A stretch of DNA of 64,000 nucleotides from Alphaproteobacteria bacterium. Its GTDB lineage: Bacteria; Pseudomonadota; Alphaproteobacteria; UBA6615. The DNA lies in contig CBDHDN010000019.1 of the NCBI GenBank assembly GCA_965261585.1, positions 4,684-68,683 on the forward strand, read 5' to 3'. Positions 2,959 to 6,012 of this stretch are shown here, in pieces (the stretch's first letter is position 1; each line of letters begins with the position of its first letter). The notes under the pieces were generated by a model. It was not told the origin of the DNA. It searched no databases and saw only the letters and a list, made by a program, of their open reading frames with translations. The translations under genes were made by a program, and so were the position numbers.

Positions 2959-3699
2959 ATGTTCTACGGACTGGACGAGAGCAGGCACAAGATCCTTATG
3001 CACGCGATCGGCGTGATCGATACGCTCTATAAGCGGGTCTTTCATGCCGACCACCTGATCGCGATCGAGCGCTGCGTCGGCTTTGTCGACGATCCCCGGT
3101 TCAAGGCCGCCCTCAAGAAATGCGCCACGACGGCGCAGGAGCGCAGCCTGGTCTGGCGGCTGCATACCCAGGCGTGGGCCGCCGGGCACTGTCTCGACAT
3201 CCCCGGCGACTTCGTCGAATGCGGCGTCTACAAGGGGTTCTGCAGCGATTTCGTGATCAACTATCTCGACTTCGCCGACCGCCGGAAGACGTTCTTTCTG
3301 TACGACACGTTCGCCGGCATTCCAGAGGCCCATCGTGCCGACTCTCCCGTCCGGCCCGGCGGCTATCAGGAAGCCGGGCTCTACGAGGCGGCGCTGGCCC
3401 GGTTTGCGCCCTATGCCAACGTCCGGGTCGTCAAGGGCGTGGTGCCGGACGTCTTCGCGGACGTCTGCCCGGAGGCGGTCGCCTATCTGCACCTGGATAT
3501 GAACTCGGCCTCGGCCGAAATCGGCGCCCTCGAGGTGCTGTTCGACCGCGTCCAACCCGGCGGCATGATCGTGCTCGACGACTATGGCTGGCAGTGGTAC
3601 CGCGCCCAGAAGGAGGCCGAGGACAAGTTCTTCGGCGCCCACGGCCACGGGGTCCTGGAGCTGCCGACCGGCCAGGGCCTCGTCGTCAAGCGGGGCTGA
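2959..3699 (+). CDS. TylF/MycF/NovP-family O-methyltransferase
   Basis: GDFVECGVYKG, YDTFAG, HLDMN, GGMIVLDDYG motifs. Confidence 0.85.
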   Translation: MFYGLDESRHKILMHAIGVIDTLYKRVFHADHLIAIERCVGFVDDPRFKAALKKCATTAQERSLVWRLHTQAWAAGHCLDIPGDFVECGVYKGFCSDFVINYLDFADRRKTFFLYDTFAGIPEAHRADSPVRPGGYQEAGLYEAALARFAPYANVRVVKGVVPDVFADVCPEAVAYLHLDMNSASAEIGALEVLFDRVQPGGMIVLDDYGWQWYRAQKEAEDKFFGAHGHGVLELPTGQGLVVKRG

Positions 3700-3721
3700 G
3701 CCGGGCGCACGAGGCCGCGCC

Positions 3722-3735
3722 TTGATCTAGATCAA
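3722..3735 (+). promoter_or_regulatory. FNR/FixK (CRP-FNR family) binding site
   Basis: TTGATCTAGATCAA is a perfect TTGAT-N4-ATCAA, 53 nt upstream of the small ORF at 3789. Confidence 0.75.
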
Positions 3736-3788
3736 GGCGTGCCGACGCCGTTGCCCCCAGTCTGGTGGGACCAGATTGGAGGTTCGCG

Positions 3789-3893
3789 ATGACCGAGGGC
3801 GAAATTGCCGTCCTGGCGATCGTGATAGCCGCGGCGGCCGCGTTCTGCGCCGTTGTCGGCTGGCTGTCGGTGGCGACGCGCAGGAAAACCTGA
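3789..3893 (+). CDS. Small single-pass membrane protein, 34 aa (not in ORF track)
   Basis: GGAGG at 3778-3782; ATG..TGA gives MTEGEIAVLAIVIAAAAAFCAVVGWLSVATRRKT, a hydrophobic helix followed by a basic tail. Confidence 0.7.
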   Translation: MTEGEIAVLAIVIAAAAAFCAVVGWLSVATRRKT

Positions 3894-3943
3894 GCCACTC
3901 CCTCGCTGCAATCCCCCAATTGCAGTGGTGGCTTGGGCAAGAT

Positions 3944-3980
3944 CCCGGGGCCGGCTGTCCCCTCCCCGGCCCCGGGTTTT
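3944..3980 (+). terminator. Rho-independent terminator with C-rich loop
   Basis: CCCGGGGCCGG(3944-3954)/CCGGCCCCGGG(3966-3976) stem followed by TTTT. Confidence 0.75.
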
Positions 3981-3981
3981 G

Positions 3982-4470
3982 TCACTCGGCGGCGGCGCGG
4001 GCCGGCGGCGCCAGCTCGCCGGTGATGGCGTAGCCGAGGGCGGCAACGACCTGCTCGGGCGTCTCGGCCACGGCCAGGGAAGCGGCGTCGACCTCCTTCA
4101 AGGCATGGTTCAGATCGGCCGCGTGCAGCGTGATCAGCGGCGTGCCGCGCGCGGCGGCATAGCCGGCATCGACGGCCGCGTTCCATTGCCGGTAGCGGTC
4201 GCCGAAGCGGACAACAACGACGTCGGCACGCTCGATCAGCGTGCGCGTGCGGATCGCGTTCAGCTTGGCGCCCTTGTGGTCGTGCCAGAACGACCGGTCC
4301 TCGGCACCGAAGATCGCCGCGGCGCAGTCGTCGCTCGTGGCATGGTCGGTGACCGGCGCCAGCAGCTCGACCGGCAGCTCGGAGGCGGCGACGCCGGCGG
4401 CTATGCGTTCGCGCCAGTCCGAGTGGATCTCACCGGACAGATAGACGCGCCAACTCGTTCGATCGGTCAT
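3982..4470 (-). CDS. YtoQ-family protein (nucleoside 2-deoxyribosyltransferase-like fold)
   Basis: VYLSGEIHSDWRE, DHKGAKLNAIRTR, RFGDRYRQWNAA, HALKEVDA; SD AAGGAG before ATG 4470. Confidence 0.85.
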   Translation of the reverse strand: MTDRTSWRVYLSGEIHSDWRERIAAGVAASELPVELLAPVTDHATSDDCAAAIFGAEDRSFWHDHKGAKLNAIRTRTLIERADVVVVRFGDRYRQWNAAVDAGYAAARGTPLITLHAADLNHALKEVDAASLAVAETPEQVVAALGYAITGELAPPARAAAE

Positions 4471-4483
4471 CTCAGTCTCCTTG

Positions 4484-4621
4484 CTATTCGGCCGTCTGCG
4501 GCTGCGGGCCATTCGGCCGCCTGCGGCTGTGGGCTATTCGGCCGCCTGCGGCTGCGGGCCATTCGGCCGCCTGCGGCTGCGGGCCATTCGGCCGCCTGCG
4601 GCTGCGGGCTATTCGGCCGCC
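4484..4621. repeat. 25-bp tandem repeat, about 5.5 units
   Basis: Units c(t/c)attcggccgcctgcggctgcggg start at 4484, 4509, 4534, 4559, 4584 and (partial) 4609. Confidence 0.95.
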
Positions 4622-5808
4622 AGCGGCAACGGCGCGGCCATTGGCCGGTCGCGCGGCAACAGCATAGCCGCGGCGACGACGACAATGGCGGCGGCGCCCA
4701 TAGCGCCGAGCAACCAGACGAACTCTCCCGTCGCCGCCTGAATGCGGGCAACCAGCTGGATCGCCAGCGGCCCGGCGCCGAACGCCAGCACGAACTTCAG
4801 CCCGAAGGCGAGGCCGTGGCGGTGCGCCGGCACGTAGCGCGCCAGCAGCAAATTCTCGGCCGGCAGCGAGCTCGAGTTGAGCGAGACCAGCAGCACGGCA
4901 AGGGCGACCAGCGGCGGGCCGCCGATCGCGGCGGCCGCGAACAGCACCGGCACCTGCAACAGCCAGCTGATGACGTAGACCGTCTTCAGCGGCATGCGGT
5001 CGGCCAGATGGCCCCCCAGCACCTGGGCAAAGGCGCTAACCCCGTAGACCAGCCCGACCAACAGGCCGACGCCCAGCGTGCCGTCGCCGACGATGTCGGC
5101 CAGGCGCAGGTCGAACAGCTTCGGCATCGCCGCCTGGGTCGCCTGAAAGATGATGCCCGAGACGAACATCGTCAGCAGCAGGATCGCGAAGGTCTTCATG
5201 CGATCGTCGCGGCTCGGCAGCGCCGCCGCCGGCTTCTCCGGCCCCTGCTCGGTGATGCGCCCGCTGACGAGGCACGCCAGCATGGCGACGCCGGTCGCAA
5301 CCGTGACCAGGCCCGGCACGATGAACGCGGCGCGCCAGCCCACGCCATCGGCGAGGCCGCCGGCGACGATCCCGGCCATGGCGATGCCGAGGCCGCCGAA
5401 GATGCCGTTGAAGGCGAGGATCTTGCCGCCGCTGCCGATCGAGTTGCGGATGACCCAGGGGATGCCGACCGGATGATAGATGGCGGCGAACGCGCCGATG
5501 CCGGCCAACGCCCAGACCAGGCTCGACGAGCCGCCGGCGAGCCCGGCGGCGACGGAAGAGCCGCCCATGCCGATGAAGAAGATGACCATCATGCCGGTCA
5601 TCGACCAGCGGTTGGCGAGCCAGCCGGCCGGCAGCGCCACGGCACCAACGAGGATCGCGCCCAGCGTCCACAGCGCGATCAGCTCATGATTCGGCATCGC
5701 CCAGACATCTTCCAGCGTCAGGGCGATCGTGAAGTAGAACGCCGTGAACATGTGGATGTAGCTGTGGCCAATCGCCGAGAACAACAGTGACAGGCGCGCC
5801 GAGCTCAT
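4609..5808 (-). CDS. MFS transporter
   Basis: About 12 hydrophobic segments, AGWLANRW and GGHLADRM motif-A-like loops; probable start MSSARLS at 5808. Confidence 0.85.
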   Translation of the reverse strand: MSSARLSLLFSAIGHSYIHMFTAFYFTIALTLEDVWAMPNHELIALWTLGAILVGAVALPAGWLANRWSMTGMMVIFFIGMGGSSVAAGLAGGSSSLVWALAGIGAFAAIYHPVGIPWVIRNSIGSGGKILAFNGIFGGLGIAMAGIVAGGLADGVGWRAAFIVPGLVTVATGVAMLACLVSGRITEQGPEKPAAALPSRDDRMKTFAILLLTMFVSGIIFQATQAAMPKLFDLRLADIVGDGTLGVGLLVGLVYGVSAFAQVLGGHLADRMPLKTVYVISWLLQVPVLFAAAAIGGPPLVALAVLLVSLNSSSLPAENLLLARYVPAHRHGLAFGLKFVLAFGAGPLAIQLVARIQAATGEFVWLLGAMGAAAIVVVAAAMLLPRDRPMAAPLPLAAE

Positions 5809-6012
5809 GGTCCGTACAATGCCAGCGGCGCGGCTGCGCGGCAACCGCGGGCGCCCGCATGGCTGCCATGCGTGTGGGCTGGATGCGCTCGCCCGCCTTG
5901 AGCTGCCCCCCAACTTGCAACTCAGCGTGAGAGTCCGGTTGGTCGACTGTGCCCTGGTGGGTGCTCGTCGTCATCTGTCCGGGGAAACGTCCCTGGACAA
6001 ACAGAAGAGGTG

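Follow-up and report, generated by a model that had tools for sequence, protein, structure and literature searches.

Class II promoters of the FNR/FixK type are recognized by a signature, the box TTGAT-N4-ATCAA with a -10 element about 23 nucleotides (nt) downstream. The box is centred near -41.5 and overlaps the -35 region, and a -35 hexamer is not expected at a promoter that depends on an activator. Very small membrane proteins are found among the products expressed at low oxygen. CydX is a membrane peptide of less than 40 amino acids (aa) and an accessory subunit of the cytochrome bd expressed at low oxygen, and FixQ/CcoQ (PF05545) is a small single-helix protein of the FixK/FNR low-oxygen regulon. 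Another such protein is CcoM of Pseudomonas stutzeri, a 36-aa single-helix subunit of the cbb3-1 oxidase that binds CcoN. Its stand-alone gene carries an ANR/FNR box and adjoins a DNA-repair gene, the protein was annotated only as hypothetical until it was found in a crystal structure, and it has been reported almost only in Pseudomonas (PMC4742706). Here, we describe a unit of comparable construction at positions 3718-3980 of a 64,000-nt stretch of contig CBDHDN010000019.1, from an alphaproteobacterial assembly of 4.88 Mb that is 86.5% complete. This whole stretch is called the window, and positions given without a contig label refer to it. The unit likely consists of one monocistronic gene, which encodes a conserved single-pass membrane peptide of 34 aa and is expressed from an activator-dependent class II promoter.

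CcoM is the closest analogue of the peptide, since the two have in common the size class, one helix, a stand-alone gene, an ANR/FNR box and a prior label of "hypothetical". In contrast to CcoM, the peptide family is alphaproteobacterial, most of its carriers are without cbb3, and no sequence similarity between the two is detectable. CydX is alike in size and membrane nature, but the peptide gene does not lie in a cyd operon. It likewise lies outside the ccoNOQP/fixNOQP operon, and its conserved residues differ from those of FixQ/CcoQ. The promoter shares with known class II FNR/FixK promoters, such as those of rhizobial fixNOQP and hemN, the box, a weak -10-like hexamer about 23 nt after it, the absence of a -35 and an E--SR regulator. 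It differs from them in that it is predicted from sequence, that its target is a lone 34-codon gene and that several carriers seem to be without the regulator. The kind of gene, one for a small membrane protein behind a class II FNR/FixK box, is known, whereas the family is new, unnamed and without a model.

The peptide family and its promoter

The genus of the window organism is represented by a single genome, and a DNA search of 60 relatives with positions 3690-3990 returned short chance matches only. When the genomes of the GTDB family were searched in six frames with the 34-aa peptide, the matches were weak only. Each of them was an open reading frame (ORF) of 42-44 aa of the form MP(V/I)EN..L.I...F..V..WL..., with TTGA(T/C)-N4-ATCAA upstream. 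A profile search of the order found one copy of the peptide in 29 of 46 genomes (28 of 45 when the window genome is left aside), distributed over 9 of 18 genera. The homologous peptides are 30-44 aa long with a single helix, and that of the window is nearer to a 34-aa type beginning "MT.GE(I/L/M)..L" than to the 42-44-aa type.

Beyond the order, a three-sequence profile was run against 401 genomes sampled across the class, and 28 listed loci were inspected. Eighteen of these were ORFs of 28-55 aa with the N-terminus, helix and basic tail of the family. A box with at most one mismatch was present 64-93 nt before the ATG in 14 of the 18, in 11 GTDB families besides the window's own, and in none of the 10 matches set aside as noise, which were long ORFs or lay in wrong frames. 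One genome for each of 185,579 species was then scanned with a pattern that required the box, the spacing and the first 9 codons, and 25 places were returned. Eighteen of them run on into a single-helix ORF of 29-59 aa and seven were chance occurrences. The records of 17 of these 18 ORFs are named as Alphaproteobacteria or are compatible with that class. The names found were Tagaea, Kiloniellaceae, Pelagibius, Reyranella, Hyphomicrobiales, Rhodospirillales, Rhodospirillaceae and Alphaproteobacteria, with four records named only Proteobacteria or Pseudomonadota. In the remaining one, a box and a family-type 55-aa peptide lie on a contig binned as an acidobacterium and labelled Candidatus Sulfotelmatobacter (L172; 70% G+C); either this contig is alphaproteobacterial and was mis-binned, or the unit also occurs outside the class.

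With an alignment of 33 sequences as the query, an exhaustive HMMER search returned 1230 representative proteins at E <= 0.001, where representatives are clusters at 50% identity; 25 of them were at E <= 1e-10. Nearly all are 29-66 aa long, with the match beginning at residue 1. The 80 relatives in the protein collection are all named "hypothetical protein". No match to the family was found in Pfam, NCBIfam or the PDB sequence library, and none among 72,556 plasmids by tblastn. The nearest clusters in the ESM Atlas were 33-34-aa proteins, also named "hypothetical protein", at 0.88-0.89, which is under the level that counts. In the full-text literature a description of the family was not found; the supplementary tables of the rhizobial small-proteome and CcoM papers fell outside that scope and could list such peptides. 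In two papers on rhizobial small proteomes, the passages considered contained nothing relevant.

A single hydrophobic helix spans about residues 6-28 of the peptide. Its N-terminus is acidic and its C-terminal tail basic, and the positive-inside rule predicts that the N-terminus faces out and the C-terminus in. Variation by codon position was analysed in 16 ungapped homologous genes of 44 codons. The summed column entropy was 28.3, 22.9 and 45.7 at codon positions 1, 2 and 3, respectively. The mean nonsynonymous difference (pN) was 0.24 compared to a mean synonymous difference (pS) of 0.57, and close pairs included values of 0.010/0.062 and 0.058/0.171. The excess of variation at third positions together with pN below pS indicates that the ORF is translated and is under purifying selection as a protein. 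Every row of the 33-sequence alignment has M1 and L9, and at least 90% of the rows keep F19. Judged by eye, the same alignment has an aromatic residue at position 25, which may be W, Y or F, and a residue at position 4-5 that is acidic or an amide.

The box was conserved along with the peptide. Within the order, a box with no more than one mismatch was found within 160 nt upstream at 28 of the 29 peptide loci. In a box-anchored alignment of 47 homologous loci, TTGA(T/C)-N4-ATCAA was present with at most one mismatch at 42. Sites of this quality number 136 in the 4.88 Mb of the window genome, or about 0.004 per upstream stretch of 130 nt, so the association of box and peptide is far beyond chance. 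The distance from the start of the box to the start codon was 64-72 nt in 33 of the 42 loci and is 67 nt in the window. A conserved cAnnTt lies 23-28 nt past the box in the 42-locus alignment, and the window has CAGTCT there. The TTGAC form of the half-site was considered as an ordinary sigma-70 -35 hexamer and rejected because the gap to the -10 is about 30 nt, which is too far. At one locus (G063) the ORF is frameshifted and the box has three mismatches, which suggests that box and ORF decay together. In the window itself the exact sequence TTGAT-N4-ATCAA occurs once, and 0 of 100 dinucleotide shuffles gave a match; in the whole assembly there are four exact sites, that of the window included. 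The four outer palindromic bases on each side of the box are specific to the window locus.

The genes around the unit change between lineages. Across most genera of the order, it is flanked by a divergent uvrB on one side and by a co-directional gene for a 400-aa class I/II aminotransferase on the other. In other families its neighbours are all different, and no neighbour is conserved across families. Since the neighbours differ in this way, the unit stands alone, and the box belongs to the peptide gene. The palindrome around the window box was also considered as the terminator of the upstream gene, an alternative that the original prediction had raised against itself. This was ruled out, because the palindrome lacks a U-tract, the box accompanies the peptide gene to sites with unrelated surroundings and, in relatives, it faces the divergent uvrB, a place that calls for no terminator. 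As a fold, the palindrome gave z = -1.9, and 7 of 200 shuffles folded as well.

Two further observations concern the site used in the other genera. The corresponding interval between uvrB and the aminotransferase gene in the window genome (C15:~3100-4290, L223) contains neither box nor peptide but an ORF of 259 aa on the opposite strand, and the 34-aa-type copy of the window genome is thus placed elsewhere than the copy of the order's other genera. In several of these genera (e.g. L059, L060, L065 and L073) a motif, GGGACTAG(G/T)TTCGC, is found 60-100 nt after the peptide stop codon and ahead of the aminotransferase gene, of which it is possibly a regulatory element.

Layout of the locus

The features of the unit and the two genes that flank it are listed in Table 1. 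The box, the -10-like hexamer, the Shine-Dalgarno (SD) sequence, the 34-codon ORF and the two hairpins followed by UUUU, all of which the original prediction had read from the sequence, were each found in place. Its central claim, an unannotated and self-contained unit, held up well, since the box, the spacing, the -10-like element and the peptide are conserved across many genomes. The class II spacing it proposed is supported by the conserved distance from box to -10-like element at the loci described above, and a start near 3770 is predicted by this geometry. Of the peptide, box and hairpins that it proposed to look for in relatives, peptide and box are kept, but the sequences of the 3' hairpins cannot be aligned between genera.

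Table 1. Elements of the peptide unit and flanking genes, in window coordinates
Feature	Position	Strand	Remarks
TylF-type O-methyltransferase gene	2959-3699	+	the unit follows its stop codon
Perfect 22-bp palindrome	3718-3739	none	core 3722-3735 is the FNR/FixK-type box TTGATCTAGATCAA, an exact TTGAT-N4-ATCAA (TTGAT-CTAG-ATCAA); putative Crp/FNR-family dimer site
-10-like hexamer CAGTCT	3758-3763	+	starts 23 nt past the end of the box, as in class II geometry
Predicted transcription start	3770	+	from box centre 3728.5 plus 41.5
Shine-Dalgarno GGAGG	3778-3782	+	6 nt before the ATG
34-aa peptide ORF	3789-3893	+	stop included; ATG at 3789; product MTEGEIAVLAIVIAAAAAFCAVVGWLSVATRRKT
3' hairpin 1	3894-3932	+	5+9 bp stem with internal loop; apical loop CCCCCA
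3' hairpin 2 and UUUU	3944-3980	+	11-bp G+C stem (3944-3954 with 3966-3976), loop CUGUCCCCUCC, UUUU at 3977-3980; probable terminator
ytoQ-like gene	3982-4470	-	convergent; nucleoside 2-deoxyribosyltransferase family

Relatives carry AAGGAG or GGAG at the position that matches the SD sequence of the window. A GTG at 3765 (42 aa) was considered as an alternative start codon and rejected; it has no SD sequence, it lies upstream of the predicted transcript start, and the relatives align from the ATG. Hairpin 2 and its U-run come to within 2 nt of the stop codon that closes the convergent ytoQ-like gene. On the other side of that gene, just upstream of its start (4470, minus strand), a 25-bp tandem repeat was seen at 4486-4627, with 5.7 copies, 94% matches and the consensus ATTCGGCCGCCTGCGGCTGCGGGCC. 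It overlaps the 3' end of an ORF for a major facilitator superfamily (MFS) transporter (4609-5913, minus strand).

The regulator that would read the box

Three proteins of the Crp/Fnr family above the Pfam cut-off are encoded in the window genome. The candidate regulator is a 244-aa protein (C1:86860-87591, minus strand) with cNMP_binding and HTH_Crp_2 domains and the helix ...TTETVSRTI..., and its gene adjoins a divergent gene for an OmpR-type response regulator. A recognition helix of the E--SR type reads TTGAT. By its ETVSR helix and the absence of an N-terminal cysteine cluster, the protein is FixK-like. Nine of the 11 best-matching proteins of relatives have C-x2-C-x7-C together with ETVSR, which is the FnrN/FnrL type. 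The FNR/FixK-type control put forward in the original prediction is well supported by comparison between genomes, and induction at low oxygen would be a further, putative step.

We infer the start site, the activation at low oxygen, the membrane topology and the mode of action as follows. A dimer of the Crp/FNR family would bind TTGAT-N4-ATCAA about 41.5 bp upstream of a start near 3770; the candidates are the FixK-type protein with ETVSR in the window genome and FnrN/FnrL-type proteins with C-x2-C-x7-C in most relatives examined. The bound dimer would recruit RNA polymerase to the weak -10 CAGTCT. The resulting transcript would be about 210 nt long and consist of a 19-nt leader with GGAGG, the ORF and a 3' untranslated region (3' UTR) with two hairpins, the second acting as the terminator. 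The peptide would insert in the inner membrane so that its N-terminus faces out and its basic tail faces in. Its most likely mode of action would be to bind some larger membrane protein there, other than cbb3 or bd, of which it would be a small subunit, accessory or modulatory.

Several results weigh against this account. Strict consensus scans of the locus called neither a sigma-70 promoter nor a terminator; the terminator was missed by the strict scan because the U-run is only 4 U. The candidate regulator of the window genome is without the iron-sulphur cysteine motif, so oxygen control would be indirect. Neither FixO nor CydA was found in the window genome, of which the assembly is incomplete as stated above, and the only oxidases seen were two A-type COX1 genes. 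No classical low-oxygen gene adjoins any of the three other exact boxes in that genome. Around these boxes lie transposases, a peptidase, an NDUFS4-like gene and a lipoprotein ORF, among others, and none of these is diagnostic. Given that low-oxygen genes are missing at these boxes and that neither a cbb3 nor a bd oxidase was found, there is no evident FixK regulon of the typical kind. Within the order there is no association between the peptide and a Crp/Fnr helix-turn-helix (HTH) regulator (both in 20 genomes, the peptide only in 9, the regulator only in 11 and neither in 6), and of the 28 peptide-bearing genomes besides that of the window, 9 showed no such regulator. In five assemblies with an intact box and peptide no Crp/Fnr HTH was found: G010 (100% complete), G033 (98%), G020 (98%), G064 (89%) and G021 (86%). 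The first four were rechecked with PF13545 at a looser threshold and with PF00027, and the matches were inspected, while G021 rests on a single search. Lastly, the function of the peptide is argued only by analogy.

The five intact units without a detected regulator, the lack of association in the order, the missing cysteine motif and the absence of a classical regulon are also what would speak for another reading, in which the unit is real but its palindrome is read by some other dimeric factor or answers some other signal, and the gene is not a low-oxygen gene. We regard this as rather unlikely. The box with a -10 about 23 nt downstream is the established signature of class II FNR/FixK promoters, and, besides the window genome, 19 peptide-bearing genomes of the order encode regulators with an E--SR helix. 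Of the four degenerate units, three are in genomes without a Crp/Fnr regulator, as would be expected if the unit depends on it. In addition, the assemblies are incomplete and interrelated. In the carriers without the regulator, another factor may read the box, or the regulator may have been lost recently.

Some observations on regulators and boxes stand apart from this question. The weak HTH matches inspected in the carriers without a Crp/Fnr regulator look DtxR/MntR- or Lrp-like by sequence reading, and two Crp-like genes there appear truncated or broken. One of the exact boxes of the window genome, TTGATCTGGATCAA at C64:220014-220027 (L120 3015-3028), comes directly after a tRNA-like stretch. 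It has a transposase gene on its upstream side, at about 0.9 kb, and a weak transposase-like ORF on its downstream side, at about 1 kb, and looks more like an island border than a promoter. A one-mismatch box 570 nt beyond it precedes a lipoprotein-like ORF of 95 aa. In the relative G029, the consensus box TTGACGCACATCAATG (C27:4096-4109, L217 1501-1514) lies just past the 3' end of the gene for an FnrN/L-type regulator and precedes an ORF of 132 aa on the same (minus) strand, which suggests a small local regulon. Two of the five consensus boxes in G005 and three of the six in G029 are intergenic, the peptide promoter among them.

The 3' hairpins and the oxidase link

The region 3890-3985 folds as two hairpins with -55.3 kcal/mol (z = -5.6), and none of 200 shuffles was as good. 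Hairpin 2 is probably the intrinsic terminator of the unit. The original prediction had gone further and made a C-rich hairpin RNA part of the unit. In a further reading, the 3' UTR hairpins would have a second function and act as, or yield, a small RNA that pairs with G-rich ribosome-binding sites. Both loops of the window are indeed C-rich and loop 2 holds CCUCC, the anti-SD word. Among 39 3' regions there were 32 runs of four or more C compared to 11 such runs of G, and of the unpaired runs 16 were of C and none of G. Two genomes of another family (G121 and G289) repeat the layout of the window, with two hairpins, C-loops and a U-tail. However, the unpaired C-runs come from only 11 of the 39 loci, several of which are close kin, and an excess of C over G is also given by ordinary terminators or rho-utilisation stretches in a genome of 67% G+C. 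CCUCC is not enriched, being present in 11 of 54 loci compared to 9.0 expected, a count that 277 of 1000 shuffles reach. Rfam 15 gave 0 matches at E <= 1 on either strand of positions 3000-5000, and, as noted, the 3' sequences are unalignable between genera. A separate RNA function of the hairpins is possible but not supported, and the C-rich RNA did not stand as a conserved feature. We consider it quite improbable that the unit has this dual function.

The architecture of Pseudomonas ccoM (PMC4742706) also invites the reading that the peptide belongs to a high-affinity terminal oxidase, cbb3 or bd, as a subunit of the CcoM, CcoQ or CydX type. Comparisons with FixQ gave weak signals only. Three of the 30 family representatives matched PF05545 below threshold, at 15-17 bits (best 16.6) compared to a gathering cut-off of 29 bits, and an hhalign comparison of the family with the FixQ proteins of relatives gave a probability of 78.6% over 23 columns. 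Against this, the hhalign match has 9% identity and is confined to the membrane helix, and the window peptide itself gave no PF05545 match. Where cbb3 is present, a distinct, true FixQ that scores 63-77 bits is encoded in the cco operon. FixO was not found in 20 of the 29 peptide-bearing genomes of the order, 13 of which are at least 97% complete. Because most carriers are without FixO, the peptide does not appear to be tied to cbb3; bd is represented in the window genome by no CydA that was found.

Each of the three known families was also considered by itself. Three family profiles were compared with all PDB chains, the CcoM entry with its conserved ladder of M17, F20 and F24 included, and only unrelated chance rows appeared at E <= 10. 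Membership in CcoM fails on sequence similarity and on co-occurrence with the cbb3 oxidase. Membership in FixQ/CcoQ fails as well, the scores being below the cut-off and the neighbours being a TylF-type methyltransferase and a ytoQ-like gene, or uvrB and the aminotransferase gene in relatives. For CydX, no Pfam match at E <= 10 was found among the 10 members scanned. A tie to the cbb3 or bd oxidase is disfavoured by these comparisons of sequence and gene content, and it is very unlikely that the peptide is a subunit of either.

Finally, there is next to no chance that the ORF is fortuitous, whether within a non-coding RNA or behind a palindrome whose only role is to terminate the upstream methyltransferase gene. 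Its shortness and its alanine-rich composition in a G+C-rich genome would speak for this, as would the ability of the palindrome to form a hairpin. Against it stand the codon-position pattern and pN below pS, the conserved SD sequence and start, and amino acids that are conserved in at least 12 families although their DNA cannot be aligned. In addition, the 1230 relatives match from residue 1, the palindrome has a modest z and no U-tract, and the box of relatives lies in a divergent promoter region.

What the family may mean

The reading preferred here, a monocistronic peptide gene behind a class II promoter, can be extended. An alphaproteobacterial family of 30-45-aa membrane peptides, with at least 1230 clusters, may have kept its own class II promoter through relocation across many orders and could thus be an overlooked core member of the low-oxygen response, acting on a ubiquitous membrane target other than cbb3 or bd. 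We hold this extension only tentatively. Candidate targets would be the A-type oxidase, a different respiratory complex or, with an MgrB-like feedback loop, a membrane sensor kinase.

Annotation routinely passes over small membrane proteins, and those that have been studied proved to be subunits of respiratory enzymes, transporters and sensor kinases, or switches that act on them. In the present case, an entire peptide family carries an unusually clean regulatory signature, and in relatives with small genomes its promoter is among very few intergenic consensus boxes. The family also offers an experimental handle, since some carriers are in culture, mutations can be placed at defined bases of the promoter and the peptide is open to tagging. 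It merits a family model so that annotation pipelines stop skipping it. Beyond this, the family raises the question of what changes in the membrane of alphaproteobacteria without high-affinity oxidases when the FNR/FixK circuit fires.

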